This document shows positions 2,906 to 61,293 of a stretch of 64,000 nucleotides of DNA, one piece after another. The translations under genes and the position numbers were made by a program. The notes beneath the pieces were generated by a model, which was not told where the DNA came from, ran no database searches, and was given only the letters and a program-made list of their open reading frames with translations. Source of the DNA: an uncultured Porphyromonadaceae bacterium (GTDB lineage: Bacteria > Bacteroidota > Bacteroidia > Bacteroidales > UBA12481); assembly GCA_964547475.1 (NCBI GenBank), contig CAZJNQ010000001.1:2795-66794 (forward strand), given 5' to 3'. Every line of letters begins with the position of its first letter. The stretch's first letter is position 1.

Positions 2906-3544
2906 ATGGAAATCAAAATCATGAAGAATGTGCTGGACAGGAACCAGGACAAGGCCAATGATAACCGCAAGCTGTTATCGGACAAAGGAATAACAATGAT
3001 TAACCTGATCAGTGCTCCGGGTTCAGGCAAGACTTCCCTGCTCGAGAAGACGCTGGATCATTTCGGGAGCATGCGGAAGATCGGCATTATCGAAGGGGAC
3101 GTAGCCACCGATCATGACGCACGCAGGCTGGCCATCTTCCGGACTCCCGTGTTACAAATCAATACCGAAGGGGGTTGCCACCTCGATTCCCATTCGATAG
3201 ACAAGGCACTTCAAAACCTTGATCTTGGCAGCCTTGACCTGATTTTCGTGGAAAACGTCGGCAACCTGGTCTGTCCGGCAGCATTTGACCTGGGTGAGAA
3301 CCATAAGGTCGCTATCGTGAGCGTGCCCGAAGGAGATGACAAGCCTGTCAAATATCCTCTGTTGTTCAGGCAGGCATCGGCCATCATCCTCAATAAAACA
3401 GACCTGATACCCTACACCGATTTCAGGATGGACCGTTTCCGCAGTTATATCCGTGACCTCAATGGTTCAGTGCCCCTTTTTGAGATTTCCTGCTCAACCG
3501 GGAGTGGCCTGGAATACTGGTTCGAATGGGTGAAACAAGTATAA
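2906..3544 (+). CDS. hypB: Hydrogenase nickel incorporation GTPase HypB
   Basis: 212 aa with P-loop APGSGKTS, ENVGNLVCP and NKTDL motifs. No His-rich N-terminal stretch. Starts 1 nt after hypA. Confidence 0.9.
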   Translation: MEIKIMKNVLDRNQDKANDNRKLLSDKGITMINLISAPGSGKTSLLEKTLDHFGSMRKIGIIEGDVATDHDARRLAIFRTPVLQINTEGGCHLDSHSIDKALQNLDLGSLDLIFVENVGNLVCPAAFDLGENHKVAIVSVPEGDDKPVKYPLLFRQASAIILNKTDLIPYTDFRMDRFRSYIRDLNGSVPLFEISCSTGSGLEYWFEWVKQV

Positions 3545-3553
3545 AAGAAAAGA

Positions 3554-3575
3554 GGCAGCCTCGGGTGAGGCCGCC
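3554..3575. terminator. Bidirectional hairpin between convergent hypB and gdhA
   Basis: GGCAGCCTC / GGGT loop / GAGGCCGCC gives a 9-bp stem with one mismatch. On the minus strand it is followed by TCTTTTCTTTTAT. On the plus strand it is followed by the pyrimidine tract. Confidence 0.55.
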
Positions 3576-3614
3576 CCTTTCCCCTTTCTCCTTTTTCCTT
3601 TTTCCTTTTTCCTT
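3574..3614 (+). repeat. 41-nt uninterrupted homopyrimidine tract with 7-nt periodicity
   Basis: Read directly: CCCCTTT CCCCTTT CTCCTTT TTCCTTT TTCCTTT TTCCTT. It lies 30 nt after the hypB stop and abuts the gdhA stop (3616). Confidence 0.9.
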
Positions 3615-11698: not shown

Positions 11699-12712
11699 TT
11701 ATACTTCCCAGGTGGCACCGGAATGCAGCAGGTCCCTGACCGTCTTGATCTCGCTCCGGCTCCTAACGGCGTCGATCTGATCCTCCAACTTCCTTTCATA
11801 AGCCGCCTGCAGGTTGCACGAACGGATCACACCCATGGCCACCGGGTATTTCGGGTAGTCCATAGTGGCCAGCATAAGGTGAATACCGGCAAATTCGGTT
11901 TGTGTATCATGGACCAGGACATCCTTTTCGGAGTAACCGCCTTCTCCCAATTGCACGACCTGCAGTTGGTTATCTTTAAGGATCAGGCCCTTATCCTGAT
12001 TTTTTCCGAAGATCATGGGTTCCCTGTGCTTCAGCAGGATGATCCGGTCATCACGGTTTTCACGGTCGGTAATGTCAGCCCAGGTATTATCGTTGAAAAT
12101 CACGCAGTTCTGCATCACTTCAACAATGGATGCTCCGATATGCTTTGCCGCCTCCAGCAGGATCTCGGTGGACATTTTGGGCATGGAATCAATCGTCCGG
12201 GCAAAGAAGCTCCCTCCCGCGCCGATGGTGATTCCTCCTGGTTTAAAAGGCCTTTCCACGGTCCCATAGGGTGATGTCTTTGACAACGCTCCATGAATGG
12301 AGGTCGGAGAGTATTGGCCTTTCGTCAGTCCGTAAATCCGGTTATTGAACAGGATCAGGTTCACATCAATATCCCGCCTGATCAGGTGCATGAAATGATT
12401 GCCGCCAATAGCCAGGGAGTCCCCGTCACCGGTGATTATCCAGACGCTCAAGGCAGGATTGGCCACCTTGACTCCGCTGGCGATTGCCATGGCTCGTCCG
12501 TGAATCCCGTGGACGCCATAGGTATTGACATAATAGGGAAACCTGGAGGAGCAGCCGATCCCGGAAATGAAAACCACGTCTTCGTGTTTGTACCCGATCT
12601 GGGGAAGGGCTTTCAACGTTGCGCTCAGGATGGCATGGTCACCACAGCCGGCACACCAGCGAACCATCTGGTCGCTCTTAAAATCTTCAGGTTGTAATTG
12701 TTTGACATCCAT
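11699..12712 (-). CDS. korB: 2-oxoacid:ferredoxin oxidoreductase beta subunit (2-oxoglutarate type, KorB-like)
   Basis: 337 aa with an N-terminal WCAGCGDH motif and the TPP-binding motif ITGDGDSLAIGGNHF. Starts 3 nt after the alpha subunit. Confidence 0.85.
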   Translation of the reverse strand: MDVKQLQPEDFKSDQMVRWCAGCGDHAILSATLKALPQIGYKHEDVVFISGIGCSSRFPYYVNTYGVHGIHGRAMAIASGVKVANPALSVWIITGDGDSLAIGGNHFMHLIRRDIDVNLILFNNRIYGLTKGQYSPTSIHGALSKTSPYGTVERPFKPGGITIGAGGSFFARTIDSMPKMSTEILLEAAKHIGASIVEVMQNCVIFNDNTWADITDRENRDDRIILLKHREPMIFGKNQDKGLILKDNQLQVVQLGEGGYSEKDVLVHDTQTEFAGIHLMLATMDYPKYPVAMGVIRSCNLQAAYERKLEDQIDAVRSRSEIKTVRDLLHSGATWEV

Positions 12713-14560: not shown

Positions 14561-14736
14561 ATCGGATTGGATATTTAGTTTTTCTGACAGCAAAGTAAAC
14601 AGATTTCAGACTTGAAGAAAATGATTATTGCTTGTGTATTCTTGAAAGAGAGAAAAAATCAAAAATCAAAGGATGGCGATAATTAAACCGGTCAGGGGAT
14701 TTACACCCGTCATAGGGAACAACTTTAATAGAAAGT

Positions 14737-14766
14737 AGGAAGGAGGAAGGAGAAAGGAGAAAGGAA
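14737..14766 (-). repeat. 30-nt homopyrimidine tract (pyrimidine on minus strand), 7-nt periodic
   Basis: Minus-strand reading: TTCCTTT CTCCTTT CTCCTTC CTCCTTC CT. It begins 2 nt after the murI stop. Bases 14737-14759 are an exact 23-nt copy (opposite strand) of 57609-57631. Confidence 0.9.
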
Positions 14767-16719: not shown

Positions 16720-16786
16720 GTTTTTTCCGTTTTATCAATTCTCATACCAAATCGTAAATCGTAAATTGTCAATCGTCTGTCGTCAA

Positions 16787-55555: not shown

Positions 55556-57583
55556 ATGAATCTCTCCCGAAAACTCAGGAAAATCCTCTTTCCGTTGCTG
55601 GTCGCCGCAGCATTGGCCACACCGGCCAAGGCGCAACTGGTTGACCCGGTTTCCTGGAACTACACTGCCAGTCAGGTCAGTGACTCGGTTTATGAACTGG
55701 TGTTCATTGCATCCATTGATCCGACCTGGCACATGTACAGCCAGGATGTTCCTGAAGGACCCGTGCCTGCCCGCTTTACCTTCAACGCATCCGAATTATG
55801 GGAGAGAATAGATACGGTCGCGGAGATCACCCCGGCCACCGAGGAATTTGACGAGATGTTCGGGGTCAAAGTCAAGTACTTTACCCTGGAGGCCCGGTTT
55901 TCACAAAGAATCAGGGTCCTGAAACCCGGATCCTTAACTGTTACCGGCACGGTTGAATATCAGGTTTGTGATGACAAGGTTTGTACCTTGGGGGAAGATG
56001 ACTTTTCTTTTTCCCTGGGTCCGGAACCAGCGGCAGGAAGCCGGTCTGATGCTTCAGCGACCATAAAATCCGAAAAGCCTGACGAACCGGGTTCCTCCTC
56101 CAAATCCCTCTGGGCACTTTTTTGGATAGCTTTCGGCAGCGGATTGATCGCCCTGCTTACTCCCTGTGTTTTCCCGATGATCCCGATGACAGTATCCTTT
56201 TTCATGCATGGCAAGGATCCGCGCAGAAAATCGATCGGGAAAGCCCTCTTTTTCGGAGTATCCATCGTCGCCATTTTCACGGTGATAGGTACAATTGTTG
56301 CCCTCATCTTCGGTCCGGGAATAGCCAATTTCCTAAGTACCCACTGGATTCCCAATGTGCTTTTCTTCCTGGTATTCATGTTTTTTGCCGCCTGGTTCTT
56401 CGGCATGTTCGAGATAAACCTTCCCAACTGGATGATCACCCGGTCAGACCAGCAGGTCGACAAAGGGGGATGGGGCGGACCTTTTTTCATGGCCTTCACC
56501 ACGGTTCTCGTCTCCTTTTCCTGTACCGGTCCGATTGTGGGTACAGTGCTGGTCCAATCAGCCGGCGGGCAGGTGCTTCAGCCCATCATCAGCATGCTGG
56601 GTTTCGGCCTGGCCTTTGCCCTCCCTTTCACCCTGTTCGCCGTATTTCCCACCTGGCTGAATTCCATGCCCAAATCAGGAGGATGGCTGAACTCGGTCAA
56701 GGTAGTACTGGGCTTCATCGAACTGGCCCTGGGACTGAAGTTTCTTAGCATCGCAGACCAGACCTATCACTGGGGCATCCTCGACCGCGAAATATACCTG
56801 GCTTTCTGGATCGTCATCTTTACCCTGATGGGCTTCTACCTCCTGGGGAAAATCAGGTTTAAGCATGACAGTGAAGTTACCCATATCGGTGTTCCCAGGC
56901 TCCTGCTGGCCATCGTGACCTTTACCTTCGTCATTTACCTGATACCGGGCATGATCGGGGCACCGTTAAAAGCCCTCGCAGGTTACCTTCCGCCGGAAAC
57001 TACTCATGACTTTGACATCCGGGAAGTCATCCGGGAAAATGCCGCTTCCTATCCTTCGTCCGCCAAGCCATTGGAGAGTGTTTGTGAGAAGCCTAAATAT
57101 GCCGACCGGCTGAAATTGCCCCATGGGCTGACAGGCTATTTCGATTATGACCAGGCGCTTGCCTGTGCCAGAGCCCAGAACAAACCGGTTTTCGTGGATT
57201 TCACCGGTCATGGTTGTGTCAACTGCAGGGAGATGGAAGCACGGGTATGGTCCGATCCCAGGGTGATCAAGCGGCTTCGTGAGAACTTTGTACTGGTTGC
57301 CTTGTATGTTGATGACAAGGTTATCAAGCTTCCTGAAAACGAATGGGTTACATCGATATTTGACGGAAAGGTCAAGAAAACGCTCGGGAAAAAGAACCAG
57401 GATTTCCAGATTACCCGTTTCGGGCAGAACACCCAGCCCCAATACACTTTGCTGGACACCAACGGCGAACTCCTGATCCCAACCCGGTCCTACAATTTGG
57501 ATATTGACGCTTTCATCGAATTCCTGGACCAGGGATTGGCTGAATACTCCAGCCGGTCTGCTCAAATCCCCTTCAAATTCTAA
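55556..57583 (+). CDS. dsbD: Thiol:disulfide interchange protein DsbD-like
   Basis: The ATG at 55556 gives a signal peptide (MNLSRKLRKILFPLLVAAALA). Central CcdA-type membrane domain and a C-terminal thioredoxin fold with CVNC. Confidence 0.8.
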   Translation: MNLSRKLRKILFPLLVAAALATPAKAQLVDPVSWNYTASQVSDSVYELVFIASIDPTWHMYSQDVPEGPVPARFTFNASELWERIDTVAEITPATEEFDEMFGVKVKYFTLEARFSQRIRVLKPGSLTVTGTVEYQVCDDKVCTLGEDDFSFSLGPEPAAGSRSDASATIKSEKPDEPGSSSKSLWALFWIAFGSGLIALLTPCVFPMIPMTVSFFMHGKDPRRKSIGKALFFGVSIVAIFTVIGTIVALIFGPGIANFLSTHWIPNVLFFLVFMFFAAWFFGMFEINLPNWMITRSDQQVDKGGWGGPFFMAFTTVLVSFSCTGPIVGTVLVQSAGGQVLQPIISMLGFGLAFALPFTLFAVFPTWLNSMPKSGGWLNSVKVVLGFIELALGLKFLSIADQTYHWGILDREIYLAFWIVIFTLMGFYLLGKIRFKHDSEVTHIGVPRLLLAIVTFTFVIYLIPGMIGAPLKALAGYLPPETTHDFDIREVIRENAASYPSSAKPLESVCEKPKYADRLKLPHGLTGYFDYDQALACARAQNKPVFVDFTGHGCVNCREMEARVWSDPRVIKRLRENFVLVALYVDDKVIKLPENEWVTSIFDGKVKKTLGKKNQDFQITRFGQNTQPQYTLLDTNGELLIPTRSYNLDIDAFIEFLDQGLAEYSSRSAQIPFKF

Positions 57584-57635
57584 CTTTCTCCTTCCTCCTT
57601 CCTCCTTCCTCCTTTCTCCTTCCTCCTTCCTCCTT
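57584..57635 (+). repeat. 52-nt uninterrupted homopyrimidine tract of 7-nt repeats filling a convergent intergenic spacer
   Basis: Read directly: CTTTCTC (CTTCCTC)x3 CTTTCTC (CTTCCTC)x2 CTT. It starts at the base after the dsbD-like stop and runs into the ubiD-family stop codon (57634-57636). Confidence 0.95.
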
Positions 57636-59526
57636 ACTCTATGACCCTCGCTCCCCCCTCTCTCACCAGCGGCCGGTACTCCAGTGAAGGTGACGGGATC
57701 ATGGGTCCCAGGCCGTAACTGTCCCATTTCCGGTCGACCAGGCTGATCGTTGTGTCATCCATCACCACAGGGTTAGGCCACGGCCTCCTGAATCCATCCA
57801 TCTCCCTGGATTTGGCGGTTGCATCGACGAACAAAATTCCATTTTCACTGGTTTGTCCCGGTGCGGATATCACGATGTCATTTGACGCGTCCGCATGGTT
57901 TCCGACCAGCCAGACCAGGTCATAGGTCCTCTTCAGGTTGACCTCCCTGTCAAAGAAGAACCAGAATCGGATAGGGGAAAAAAACTCTTCCTGGCGGATA
58001 TCATCCATCAATTCACGGATCATTCCCGGCCGCCCCTTTGACAAGGAAACGAGCCCCACTGCGATTCCTTTCCGGATCCAATCGAGATTGATGTCCGTAA
58101 TCTCAGGATGAACCGACCGGAAAGAAGCCAGTGAATTCAGGTCCGGATACTGATCCTGAACGGCATCGGTTTCCAGGACCGGACCGGTTGCGTCAAGGCC
58201 CAATTTCCCTCCGTACACGGGTTCTGCCGATGAATGATCAAGACAATCCAGCGGTCCTGTCGCCCTTTCGACATGTTTGGCAGGATCTACGCGGGCCGAA
58301 ACAAATCGGGCTAAAGCCTCATAATCCGTCAATCGAGGTTCGTTACCTACGATGATGGCTAACTTGGTGAACATCATCTGCCCCGCGCCCCAGAGGGCGT
58401 GCAGGGCCTTGCGTCCGTGCCCGGGAAAAGCCGTTTCGATTGATGCCAGGACCAGGTTATGGGCCACTCCTGCCGTTGGCATATGGAAACCGGTCAGTTC
58501 GGGCACCAGGGACAAACGGATTAAAGGTTCAAACAGCCGTTCGGTCGCCCATTCGATCCAGGCATCTTCCTGAGGGGGAATTCCGACGACCGTTGCCGGG
58601 TAAACAGCCTCTTCCCGGTGAGTAATGGCCGTTACATGGAATACCGGATAGGCATCTTCGAGGGAATAGAATCCGGTATGGTCACCAAACGGGCCCTCCT
58701 GACGGAGGGGCTCCTCCGGATCAACATACCCCTCAATCACAAAATCGCAATCCTGCGGAACCCATAAATCCTGTGTAATGCACCTGACCAGCCTGACCGG
58801 TTCCTTTCGGATAAAGCCAGCCAGCAGGTATTCGTCGATCCCGTCCGGCAGGGGTGCCGTGGCGCAATAGGTGTAAACCGGATCTCCGCCCAGCGCCACA
58901 GCCACAGGCATTTTCCTTTTGAGCCTTTCATGTTCGCGGTAGTGCCGTGCCCCGGTTTTATGCAAGTGCCAGTGCATTCCTGTCGTCCTTGTATCGAAAA
59001 CCTGCATCCGGTACATACCCAGGTTCGGCGACCCGGTCACAGGATCTATTGTGTGCACGAGAGGCAGCGTGATGAAAGGGCCGCCGTCATGGGGCCAGCA
59101 TGTCAGTACCGGTAGTTTTTGTAGGTCAGGTTCCGGTTCTATTATTTCCTGACAACGTCCCCGGCCATTTTTCTTCACCGGCAGCCAACCCGATACCTTA
59201 CCCAGGAGAGGAAGCTTACCGACTTTTGCGATCAGGCCTGAACCGGCTCCGGTCAGGGAGCTGATCAGCCGGGTGACCTCGAGGGCCAGCTCTTCCGGCA
59301 GATATCCCCTGAAGGCGAGCTTGATCCGGCTTGCAGATCCCAGGGAATTGATCAGAAGAGGGAATCCGGTTCCGTTGTTTTCAAACAGCAATGCCTTTCC
59401 TCCGCCTTCTGACTTGGATATCCTGTCGGTTATCTCCGTGATTTCAAGTCGTGTCGATACCTTTTCCCTGATCCTGGTCAGTTCCCCGCTCTTTTCAAGC
59501 AGCCGAATAAAAGCCTGCAGATCCAT
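57634..59526 (-). CDS. UbiD family decarboxylase (menaquinone-biosynthesis-decarboxylase-like) with long C-terminal extension
   Basis: 630 aa. The N-terminal ~440 aa show UbiD-like sequence (MDLQAFIRLLEKSGEL..., GGDP, GPFGDHTGFY). About 190 extra C-terminal residues follow. Confidence 0.8.
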   Translation of the reverse strand: MDLQAFIRLLEKSGELTRIREKVSTRLEITEITDRISKSEGGGKALLFENNGTGFPLLINSLGSASRIKLAFRGYLPEELALEVTRLISSLTGAGSGLIAKVGKLPLLGKVSGWLPVKKNGRGRCQEIIEPEPDLQKLPVLTCWPHDGGPFITLPLVHTIDPVTGSPNLGMYRMQVFDTRTTGMHWHLHKTGARHYREHERLKRKMPVAVALGGDPVYTYCATAPLPDGIDEYLLAGFIRKEPVRLVRCITQDLWVPQDCDFVIEGYVDPEEPLRQEGPFGDHTGFYSLEDAYPVFHVTAITHREEAVYPATVVGIPPQEDAWIEWATERLFEPLIRLSLVPELTGFHMPTAGVAHNLVLASIETAFPGHGRKALHALWGAGQMMFTKLAIIVGNEPRLTDYEALARFVSARVDPAKHVERATGPLDCLDHSSAEPVYGGKLGLDATGPVLETDAVQDQYPDLNSLASFRSVHPEITDINLDWIRKGIAVGLVSLSKGRPGMIRELMDDIRQEEFFSPIRFWFFFDREVNLKRTYDLVWLVGNHADASNDIVISAPGQTSENGILFVDATAKSREMDGFRRPWPNPVVMDDTTISLVDRKWDSYGLGPMIPSPSLEYRPLVREGGARVIE

Positions 59527-59603: not shown

Positions 59604-60275
59604 TCATTCCCTGGTTTCTGAAGCCTCTTCGGCAGCCGGTTCATTCTTCACCGGGGTTTCTTCAACGGCTTTGACTTTCTTGGTTTTACCTGCTTCTTCA
59701 GCTTTCTTGGTCTTCACTGCTCCCCCTGCATTCTTTTTGGGAGTTTTAGGAGCCGGTTTCTTTTTTTCAGCGGCAGGTTTGGCTTTTTCAACGTCAATTT
59801 TTTCGGCTGTTTCACCAGCAACTTTTTCGGTCGTTTCACCGGCAATTTTTTTTGTGGTTTTCCGGGAACGGCGGGTTGTTTTAACTTTGGCTTCGGCTTT
59901 GCCCTTCAGCATGTTGTCATTGAAATCGACCAGTTCTATGATGCACATTTCAGCTCCGTCTCCCAGACGGGTACCGGTCTTCAGGATCCGGGTATAACCA
60001 CCGGGACGATCGGCCACTTTCTGTATCACATCCCGGAACAAGGTTGTAACAGCTTCCTTATCTGTCAGATAGCTAAAAACAATCCTGCGTGAATGGGTCG
60101 TATCTTCCTTGGCACGGGTAATCAGAGGTTCAACATATTTGCGCAATGCCTTGGCTTTGGCAACGGTAGTGGTAATCCTCTTGCTTTTTATCAGTGAACT
60201 GGCCATGTTGGCCAGCATAGAATCCCTGTGTGAGTCTGTCCTTCCTAAATTATTCTGTTTATCACCGTGTCTCAT
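59604..60275 (-). CDS. rplQ: 50S ribosomal protein L17 with Lys/Ala/Glu-rich C-terminal tail
   Basis: 223 aa beginning [29 protein letters not shown] (L17 signature). A low-complexity tail of about 100 aa follows. Confidence 0.93.
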
Positions 60276-60300
60276 TTCTTTTTTCTTAAATCTTTACTCT

Positions 60301-61293
60301 TTATTCTTTATCCAACTTGTACTTAGCCACATCCATGCCGAAATTCAGGTTCATGGTTTTCAGCAGGTCTTCCAGCTCGGTAAGGGATTTCTTGCCGAAA
60401 TTCCTGAATTTGAGCAGGTCGTTTTTATTATAGGCTACCAGGTCCCCCAGGGTTTCTACATCGGCAGCCTTGAGGCAATTCAGAGCCCTGACCGACAGAT
60501 CCAGGTCGGTCAGTTTGGTTTTCAATTGCTGCCTCATATGGAGGACTTCCTCATCGAACTCTTCGCTGTCCATTTTTTCATCCGATTCAAGGGTGATTTT
60601 CTCATCCGAGAAAAGCATGAAATGGTGAATCAGTATTTTGGCCGACTCTTTCAAGGCATCTTTAGGGTGGATCGAACCATCCGTCTGGATCTCCAGGATC
60701 AGTTTTTCATAGTCGGTCTTTTGTTCAACGCGGAAATTCTCGATCGTGTACTTAACGTTCCGGATCGGCGTGAAGACCGAGTCAAGGGCAATCAGGCCGA
60801 TTTCGGCATCATCCGGTTTGTTTTCTTCTGAGGGCACATAACCCCTGCCTTTATTGATAGTCAGCGTCATCTGAAATTTCACTGCCGGATCCATCCTGCA
60901 GATCGGCTGGTCCGGGTTCAGAACCTTAAAACCGCTAAGAAAATTCCCGATATCGGCAGCCTTAAGAGAATCTTGGCCTGTAACCGCGATGGTAACCCGT
61001 TCATCCTCCACTCCTTCAATCTGCTGTTTAAACCGGATCTGTTTCAGGTTAAGCAGAACCTCTGTCACATCTTCCATAACACCCTTGATGGTGGAGAACT
61101 CGTGATCCACCCCTTCAATCTTGACAGTTGTGATGGCGAATCCTTCGAGTGAGCTCAGGAGGATGCGGCGGAGGGCATTACCAATGGTAATCCCGTAGCC
61201 CGGTTCAAGTGGCCGGAATTCGAACTTCCCGTACTGCGGGTCCGATTCAAGCAGGATAACCTTATCAGGTTTCTGAAAAGATAAAATGGCCAT
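60301..61293 (-). CDS. rpoA: DNA-directed RNA polymerase subunit alpha
   Basis: 330 aa with the N-terminal domain ([12 protein letters not shown]) and C-terminal domain ([14 protein letters not shown]...LG DL). Sits between rpsD and rplQ. Confidence 0.97.

Follow-up and report, generated by a model that had tools for sequence, protein, structure and literature searches.

The stretch of DNA analysed here (the window, 64 kb) comes from an uncultured Bacteroidales-like bacterium, and in it a dsbD-like gene for thiol:disulfide interchange and a gene of the ubiD family end against each other with a tandem array of heptanucleotides between them (Table 1). The array reads CTTTCTC (CTTCCTC)3 CTTTCTC (CTTCCTC)2 CTT on the plus strand, which amounts to 52 nt without a purine, or about 7.5 heptamers of the type CTTYCTC. 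The TAA codon of the dsbD-like gene lies at 57581-57583 (+) and the stop codon of the ubiD-family gene at 57634-57636 (-), and the 50-nt spacer between them is array throughout. Homologues of the ubiD-family gene bear the NCBI name menaquinone biosynthesis decarboxylase, and the best match of the UbiD protein among species representatives, at 66%, is Bacteroidetes bacterium GWF2_49_14. The Pfam assignments for the neighbours of this array and of two further arrays, near murI and hypB, are DsbD_TM/Thioredoxin, UbiD, Asp_Glu_race (murI), cobW/HypB, and ELFV dehydrogenase.

The original prediction, made from the letters of the window, had described the tract as a purine-free run with a period of 7 nt that fills the entire spacer. 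Both statements were confirmed, the second from the positions of the two stop codons and the first by the sequence, by shuffling, and by Tandem Repeats Finder (TRF), which reports period 7 with 8.0 copies and 91% matches at 57584-57639. The run of 52 nt is the longest purine-only or pyrimidine-only run in the window, 200 shuffles of which gave none beyond 23 nt. The tract had also been presented as a member of a dispersed family, and the observations behind this proposal were reproduced. An exact copy of the 23-mer at 57609-57631 stands on the opposite strand at 14737-14759, next to murI, where dinucleotide-preserving shuffles give an expectation of 0, and the third 7-periodic tract, located between hypB and gdh, is indeed free of purines over its whole length. 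Matches to the two-unit CCTTYCTCCTTYCT are restricted to these three loci (13 observed vs 0.15 expected).

Comparison of strain contigs revealed that the array differs in length between close relatives. The 90% cluster of UbiD has eight members, and two alleles of the spacer were found, one of 50 nt in the window and in L001, and one of 36 nt (5 units) in seven contigs from seven other samples (L082-L088), whose DNA is 97.7-98.8% identical to the window. The 36-nt allele, CTTCCTCCCTTCTCCTTCCTCCTTTCTCCTTTCTCT, is exactly 14 nt shorter and still purine-free, and it carries the C/T unit variants in another order, with one base difference between the alleles in 83 nt of compared flank. The array next to murI also varies by a whole unit. 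The MurI protein is identical across 22 contigs, and nine examined contigs include the murI spacer; the array has the form (CCTTTCT)2(CCTTCCT)2, with 4 full units, in the window and 6 contigs, and contains (CCTTCCT)3, with 5 full units, in the other three of the nine (L214, L215, and L218). The 208-nt spacer is otherwise identical in all nine contigs, with the sole exception of one single-nucleotide polymorphism in L215.

These changes stand out against long stretches of otherwise collinear DNA. The alignment of L214 with the window extends over 20.8 kb at 99.3% identity and contains one gap, of 7 nt, while that of L083, at 98.6% identity, spans 16.4 kb and leaves a net difference in length of 14 nt; according to the coordinates, the aligned segments that flank the array in L083 are equal in length to those of the window. 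Apart from whole-unit changes in the two CT arrays, these two alignments show no net difference in length, a pattern that is the signature of slipped-strand mispairing. An array of another unit, (ACGATTT)4, showed no length change among the strain contigs compared. The lengths of the neighbouring proteins are constant whichever allele is present (UbiD 630, DsbD 675, and MurI 262 aa).

The alleles also bear on the exact 23-mer. The stretch shared by the two arrays measures 23 nt with the window alleles, shortens to 16 nt if the 36-nt allele is taken, and lengthens to 27 nt when the five-unit allele of murI is used. We infer that no conserved motif is involved and that the identity is a by-product, since both arrays use the same pair of units.

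More distant relatives lack the array. In the four contigs L208-L211, with 69-71% UbiD identity, the synteny is kept and there is no spacer at all: the 3' ends of ubiD and dsbD overlap by 11 nt, and therefore each transcript must end within the opposite gene. In L212, the two genes are separated by 11 nt. No array was found at the ubiD/dsbD site in L003 and L004, nor in L005 and L006, where hairpins are present instead. In the window species, both UbiD and DsbD terminate at homologous residues, which suggests that the array came, by insertion or by expansion, to lie between ends that formerly abutted. As far as can be judged from these sequences, the element appears clearly dispensable at the ubiD/dsbD site.

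Taken with the strain alleles, this comparison makes it probable, in our view, that the tract is a young, strain-polymorphic heptanucleotide repeat of the class of long simple sequence repeats (long SSRs, with units of 5-11 nt), born of slippage and housed in a tolerant position between convergent stop codons. Three features of a heptanucleotide long SSR are present, namely, tandem 7-nt units beyond chance, length change by whole units, and a non-coding location. The array would have arisen in this lineage by slipped-strand mispairing at the point where the convergent stop codons earlier abutted or overlapped, and would persist there as a site between convergent stops tolerates insertions. Replication slippage is the probable mechanism, and the literature describes it as favoured for units of 7 nt. 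Heptanucleotide repeats are reported to be the most abundant class of long SSRs in most prokaryotic genomes, with polymerase slippage proposed as their cause (Mrazek et al. 2007, as summarized in PMC4679880 and PMC4692102).

The purine-free purity of the tract would, under a slippage origin, reflect its youth and the homogenisation of two C/T unit variants by slippage, rather than selection. The array would set the two 3' ends 36-50 nt apart, and transcripts of dsbD would gain a C-rich, G-free, and unstructured tail on which Rho could possibly load. Such loading would be an unselected side effect, and we treat it as such because the relatives manage with overlapping genes.

Further readings were considered and rejected. 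A mobile-element origin of the kind seen in MITEs (miniature transposable elements with inverted repeats) was discarded as no inverted repeats, direct repeats, or target duplications flank the array. Phase variation at a contingency locus was discarded as both polymorphic arrays begin 0-4 nt past stop codons, where neither a reading frame nor any evident promoter is affected; the next start codon after the murI array follows about 170 nt downstream. Membership in the named heptamer families TAACTGA, STRR, and GGGNATC was discarded on the basis of the units, which are CTTCCTC/CTTTCTC, CCTTTTT, ACGATTT, and ATAAAGA here.

The pure purine/pyrimidine duplex invites an explanation by DNA structure, in which H-DNA, or a two-tetrad G-quadruplex of the purine strand as RNA or DNA, would act as a barrier between the convergent units. 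The 50-nt allele contains a perfect mirror repeat of 24 nt, its purine strand has 12 GG runs, and the G-rich heptamers of Xanthomonas and Nostoc form G-quadruplexes in vitro (PMC4692102). However, in the common allele of 36 nt the perfect mirror shrinks to 10 nt, and therefore triplex potential is not maintained, while runs of GG, as opposed to GGG, give weak quadruplexes. The array is, moreover, not conserved, and a structural barrier of either kind is highly improbable.

The occurrence of heptamers was surveyed in 80 Bacteroidota ubiD loci (~1.39 Mb), with positional statistics computed over 1.45 Mb from gene calls made by a simple heuristic of the longest open reading frame (ORF), in which stops are exact and starts approximate. 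The commonest tandem-repeat period in the 80 loci is 7, with 35 TRF arrays of at least three copies, as compared to 18 arrays of period 6 and 20 of period 8. A count of exact repeats of at least three copies, which is independent of TRF, gave 10 arrays of period 7 vs 4, 3, and 1 at periods 5, 6, and 8, respectively. The units are very diverse and mostly AT-rich.

The period-7 arrays are placed non-randomly, and this part of the original prediction is supported. Intergenic DNA makes up 11.5% of the 1.45 Mb and holds 38 of the 44 arrays (p=7e-30); spacers between divergent genes have 2 arrays vs 8.2 expected (p=0.006); and in co-oriented spacers, the stop-proximal third holds 20 of 29 arrays (p=9e-5). 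GGGNATC heptamers are known to be intergenic, stop-proximal, and depleted between divergent genes (PMC4692102), and our survey reproduces a distribution of this type in Bacteroidota.

The orientation of the arrays, in contrast, does not follow the rule that had been proposed. In line with that rule, dsbD, murI, and hypB, whose stop codons lie about 0, 4, and 29 nt upstream, all have the pyrimidine strand as their sense strand, but at two of these loci a convergent gene (ubiD or gdh) ends 0-1 nt away and has the purine strand as its sense strand just as well. Since two of the three loci are convergent, only murI is informative on orientation. A metagenome scan for (CCTTYCT)3, used for the orientation test only, found at least 119 stretches, for which 80 loci from unrelated organisms (GC 0.31-0.70) were listed, none of them matching the window. 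Among the matches listed, intergenic (CCTTYCT)n arrays no more than 15 nt from a stop codon have the purine strand as sense in 10 cases, as against 2 with a pyrimidine sense strand (p=0.039), and a TAA is fused to the array in seven. Stop-proximal heptamers in other Bacteroidota likewise show no trend towards C over G on the sense strand, contrary to the proposed strand specificity. The idea of an orientation-dependent 3'-end element, as opposed to a microsatellite, was thus not upheld, given the whole-unit changes among strains and the absence of the array in relatives with overlapping genes.

Composition nevertheless makes the tract look like a place for Rho, which loads on C-rich, G-poor, and unstructured RNA of roughly 70-80 nt. 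The pyrimidine strand could then be a selected, rut-like loading site that ends transcripts of dsbD (and also of murI and hypB) before they run antisense into the convergent gene. The segment formed by the array and the antisense of the 3' end of ubiD is the most C-rich and G-poor 78-nt segment on either strand of the window (C 0.55, G 0.03), and the array is fully unpaired in both the minimum-free-energy and the centroid RNA fold. Folds of the two strands both leave the array unpaired, with z-scores of 0.0 and 0.9, no better than shuffles, and with no hairpin at the array. A search for intrinsic terminators (a hairpin with a U tract) at the dsbD/ubiD spacer, covering both strands of 57000-58200, found none. 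The generally stop-proximal position of heptamer arrays also agrees with such a role, and dsbD read-through transcripts may well be terminated by Rho at the array, judging from its composition.

Selection for this function is another matter. At 69-71% UbiD identity, the genes of the relatives overlap without a spacer, and therefore termination there needs no such element; the length of the tract changes between 36 and 50 nt among strains; and the hypB/gdh locus possesses its own hairpin terminator. In other Bacteroidota, the stop-proximal heptamer arrays have no tendency towards a C-rich sense strand, and the (CCTTYCT)n arrays listed from elsewhere are mostly purine-sense to the ending gene (10 vs 2). 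We therefore regard a selected Rho-loading site as unlikely, although it is the least unlikely of the alternatives considered here.

A regular spacing of 7 nt could also suit a protein. The array would then serve as a platform for a single-strand nucleic-acid-binding protein that covers about 7 nt per monomer and affects mRNA stability or 3'-end processing. Proteins with a cold-shock domain or an S1/OB fold, which prefer pyrimidine-rich RNA, are candidates, and the phasing, the pure CU composition, and the predicted lack of structure all fit. For example, CspB of B. subtilis binds heptamer repeats, with one protein on each heptamer, and prefers T/C-rich sequences such as TTCTTTT (PMC4679880). 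However, the array is not conserved and its orientation is inconsistent, while period 7 recurs in unrelated units (ACGATTT, ATAAAGA, and others), which points to mutation rather than recognition as the cause of the period. We consider such a platform very unlikely.

The two ideas can be combined in a broader proposal, namely, that heptamer arrays, which lie directly past stop codons and are kept out of divergent spacers with promoters only, are a selected, modular device of the 3' untranslated region in Bacteroidota rather than mutational debris, realised here in a CU-only form for the loading of Rho or of a phased protein, in which the strain-variable number of units would tune 3'-end formation or the insulation of convergent genes. 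This proposal is improbable as well, if less so than a protein platform taken by itself. If true, a tunable platform for Rho or a protein would be a simple handle on how 3' ends are formed in a phylum where the signals for termination are poorly defined.

A last alternative concerns the ribosome. It had been noted from the window alone that the tract resembles the 3' tail of 16S rRNA, in which case the transcript would mimic the tail that carries the anti-Shine-Dalgarno (anti-SD) sequence (CCUCCUUUCU), and the tandem GGAGG sites of the complement would titrate or recruit ribosomes. The tract does contain CCTCCTTTCT, a sequence equal to the 3' tail of many bacterial 16S rRNAs. Several purine-sense arrays among the metagenome matches listed (L144, L159, and L133) resemble expanded SD sites, and these fill short tandem spacers just before a start codon. 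TAAGGAGG would be a natural seed for arrays in SD-using bacteria, several of which fill short operon spacers.

The host of the present array, however, is a bacterium of the Bacteroidia type, and the ribosomes of Bacteroidia keep the anti-SD sequestered and do not respond to SD sequences (PMC7797042, PMC9976891). An upstream SD-like core is present in only 7 of the 57 genes of the window, whose leaders are A-rich. For these two reasons, an anti-SD role is unlikely in Bacteroidia. In addition, the GGAGG repeats on the ubiD strand are not followed by a start codon and run into dsbD antisense, and any CT repeat that contains CCTCC would resemble the 16S tail equally. Neither the window nor the 212 loci examined contain a 16S gene, and GGATCACCTCCTT is absent from all 212; an Rfam scan of the whole window returned no family at the gathering score and no known RNA at any array. 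Among the explanations considered, anti-SD mimicry is the one to which we give least credence.

The reading of the tract as a young microsatellite formed by slippage has its own difficulties. The closest GTDB relative, L002, has in the orthologous spacer (~11885-11945) a degenerate, purine-rich, and 7-periodic stretch (GTAAGGC GAAAGGC GAAAGAA GAAGGAT AGAGGCA...). The array could accordingly be older than the window species and have been lost in the relatives with 69-71% identity, or it could arise repeatedly at this site. Both alleles of the tract remain 100% pyrimidine. The 36-nt allele is identical in all seven contigs despite flanks that differ by ~1.5% from the window, and therefore the array is not wildly unstable.

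Further points of this kind come from the wider comparison. CT/GA-only units make up three of the five heptamer TRF arrays in the window with at least three copies, while arrays in other Bacteroidota are mostly AT-rich; and the stop-proximal clustering goes beyond a uniform null (p=9e-5), which could reflect selection rather than permissiveness. The CT/GA bias of the arrays in this species and the stop-proximal placement across Bacteroidota are the main residual oddities. The material from the genome itself consists of the 64-kb window and overlapping strain contigs, and neutrality cannot be demonstrated from sequence.

Table 1. Positions of the heptamer arrays, their neighbouring genes, and the features compared with them. 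Positions in contigs other than the window follow the numbering of that contig.
Feature	Sequence	Position	Strand	Remark
Heptanucleotide array (CTTYCTC)n, 7 full units + partial, purine-free	Window	57584..57635	+	50-nt spacer allele
dsbD-like thiol:disulfide interchange gene, 675 aa from ATG	Window	55556..57583	+	TAA stop adjoins array
ubiD-family gene	Window	57634..59526	-	TAA stop fused to purine-strand array (TAAGGAGGAAGG...)
Most C>G 78-nt segment, array + antisense of ubiD 3' end	Window	57590..57667	+	rut-like in composition only
Second array, (CCTTTCT)2(CCTTCCT)2 + degenerate unit	Window	14730..14766	-	begins 4 nt past murI stop
Third array, CCCCTTT/CCTTTTT, 41 nt, purine-free	Window	3574..3614	+	in convergent hypB/gdh spacer
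Unrelated array (ACGATTT)4	Window	16749..16776	-	10 nt past bamA stop; invariant among strains
A-rich array (ATAAAGA)n	Window	60276..60311	-	covers rpoA stop codon + rplQ (L17) start codon
Short array (GATTTTT)2.4	Window	14654-14670	sense strand	TRF; in spacer between murI and pyruvate:ferredoxin oxidoreductase gene
ubiD/dsbD 11-nt overlap	L208	2309-2319		
ubiD/dsbD 11-nt overlap	L209	11883-11893		
ubiD/dsbD 11-nt overlap	L210	4370-4380		
ubiD/dsbD 11-nt overlap	L211	2521-2531		
ACGATTT/ACGAATT array	L011	9748-9807		
ACGATTT/ACGAATT array	L013	9270-9299		
ACGATTT/ACGAATT array	L022	8980-9013		
ACGATTT/ACGAATT array	L042	9903-9929		
ACGATTT/ACGAATT array	L048	15191-15218		
ACGATTT/ACGAATT array	L048	17691-17717		

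Period 7 accounts for five of the eight TRF arrays with at least three copies in the window. The property that the window arrays have in common is this period, not pyrimidine content, because (ACGATTT)4 and (ATAAAGA)n are also heptameric. The third array is unlike the other two, as it appears to extend the stem of a conventional terminator that serves gdh. A terminator-like hairpin of 20 pairs lies between hypB and gdh at 3543-3586, with its T tract on the gdh strand, and its arms are formed by an upstream purine run (AAAAGAAAAGAGG) and the 5' part of the pyrimidine array. Shorter purine-only or pyrimidine-only runs of 13-21 nt were rejected as members of the family; all but that at 14644-14658 are intragenic and reflect codon composition.

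Several further repeats were observed beside these arrays. In the spacer downstream of murI, (GATTTTT)2.4 stands next to the 15-nt purine run at 14644-14658, ~60-90 nt before the start codon of pyruvate:ferredoxin oxidoreductase, and it is the same in all nine strain contigs. Tandem arrays of ACGATTT/ACGAATT (in cyclic register) recur in distantly related Bacteroidota as well as in the window, usually a few to tens of nt past a stop codon and mostly in one orientation relative to the upstream gene.

Heptamers of the types ATAAAGA, ATAAGGA, TTTAAGA, and GACTAAA occupy the rpoA-rplQ spacer from the rpoA stop codon to the start codon of L17. An A-rich, heptamer-phased leader is present here in every relative with 66-100% UbiD identity (L002, L083-L085, L209, L210, and L212), with differences in copy number and unit variants. 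These heptamers may function as an SD-less leader, and they resemble the TAACTGA repeats found near the start codons of ribosomal operons (PMC4679880). Within rplQ itself, a 24-nt tandem repeat (3.0 copies, 80% matches; 59781-59851, -) lies in the C-terminal extension of L17, which has 223 aa in the window vs 192-204 aa as called in relatives of ~70% identity, where repeats of 9, 12, or 18 nt are found.

Among the systems described before, the long SSRs of Mrazek, Guo & Shah 2007 (PNAS) are closest to the tract. They share with it the tandem 7-nt array beyond chance, the non-coding location, the variation by whole units, and a free-living environmental bacterium as host, and the published explanation is a general expansion of 7-nt units by slippage, with no specific physiological role. 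The tract differs in its CTTYCTC unit and in its host lineage (an uncultured, Bacteroidales-like metagenome-assembled genome), which that study, to judge from two secondary accounts (PMC4679880, PMC4692102), did not describe.

The GGGNATC/GGGGAYT repeats of Xanthomonas and Nostoc (Rehm et al. 2015, PMC4692102) are also heptameric and intergenic, mostly between co-oriented ORFs, scarce between divergent ORFs, and within 50 bp of a stop codon, and they vary extensively in length and sequence between close relatives at the same intergenic sites. However, they contain GGG runs, form G-quadruplexes in vitro, and prefer four units, whereas the present arrays have only GG runs on the purine strand and no preferred number of units (4, 5, or 7 full units).

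The TAACTGA repeats of Beggiatoaceae, cyanobacteria, and some Bacteroidetes (MacGregor 2015, PMC4679880) and the cyanobacterial STRR are intergenic heptamers as well, Bacteroidetes included, and one intergenic region may hold several different heptamer repeats. TAACTGA is a single unit, found mostly just upstream of start codons in the forward orientation and proposed as a site for a translational regulator, whereas the arrays here have another unit and adjoin stop codons; (ATAAAGA)n between rpoA and rplQ comes closer to the TAACTGA arrangement.

Two functional classes resemble the tract in part. Like rut sites, it is C-rich, G-poor, and unstructured over ~80 nt of untranslated RNA just past a stop codon, but rut sites have no tandem repeats and are defined functionally by Rho dependence, whereas the tract is rut-like in composition only and is dispensable in relatives. 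Contingency-locus SSRs likewise are slippage-prone tandem repeats with strain-variable numbers of units. Their units usually measure 1-5 nt and lie inside ORFs or between promoter elements, where they act as on/off switches, whereas the present arrays lie past stop codons, and a change of 7 or 14 nt alters no reading frame and no evident promoter.

These results make the spacer a useful calibration case, in which a designed-looking, purine-free stretch of 52 nt behaves as a young heptanucleotide microsatellite. They provide two clean natural cases of gain or loss of whole units (5 vs 7 and 4 vs 5) between co-occurring strains. As the only indels in 16-21 kb, the arrays would be useful as strain markers, and heptamer arrays are likely trouble spots for assembly and binning. 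The published rule that heptamers cluster past stop codons and shun divergent spacers is extended to Bacteroidota, and the ubiD/dsbD locus shows how an array can push apart two convergent genes whose counterparts in relatives overlap.

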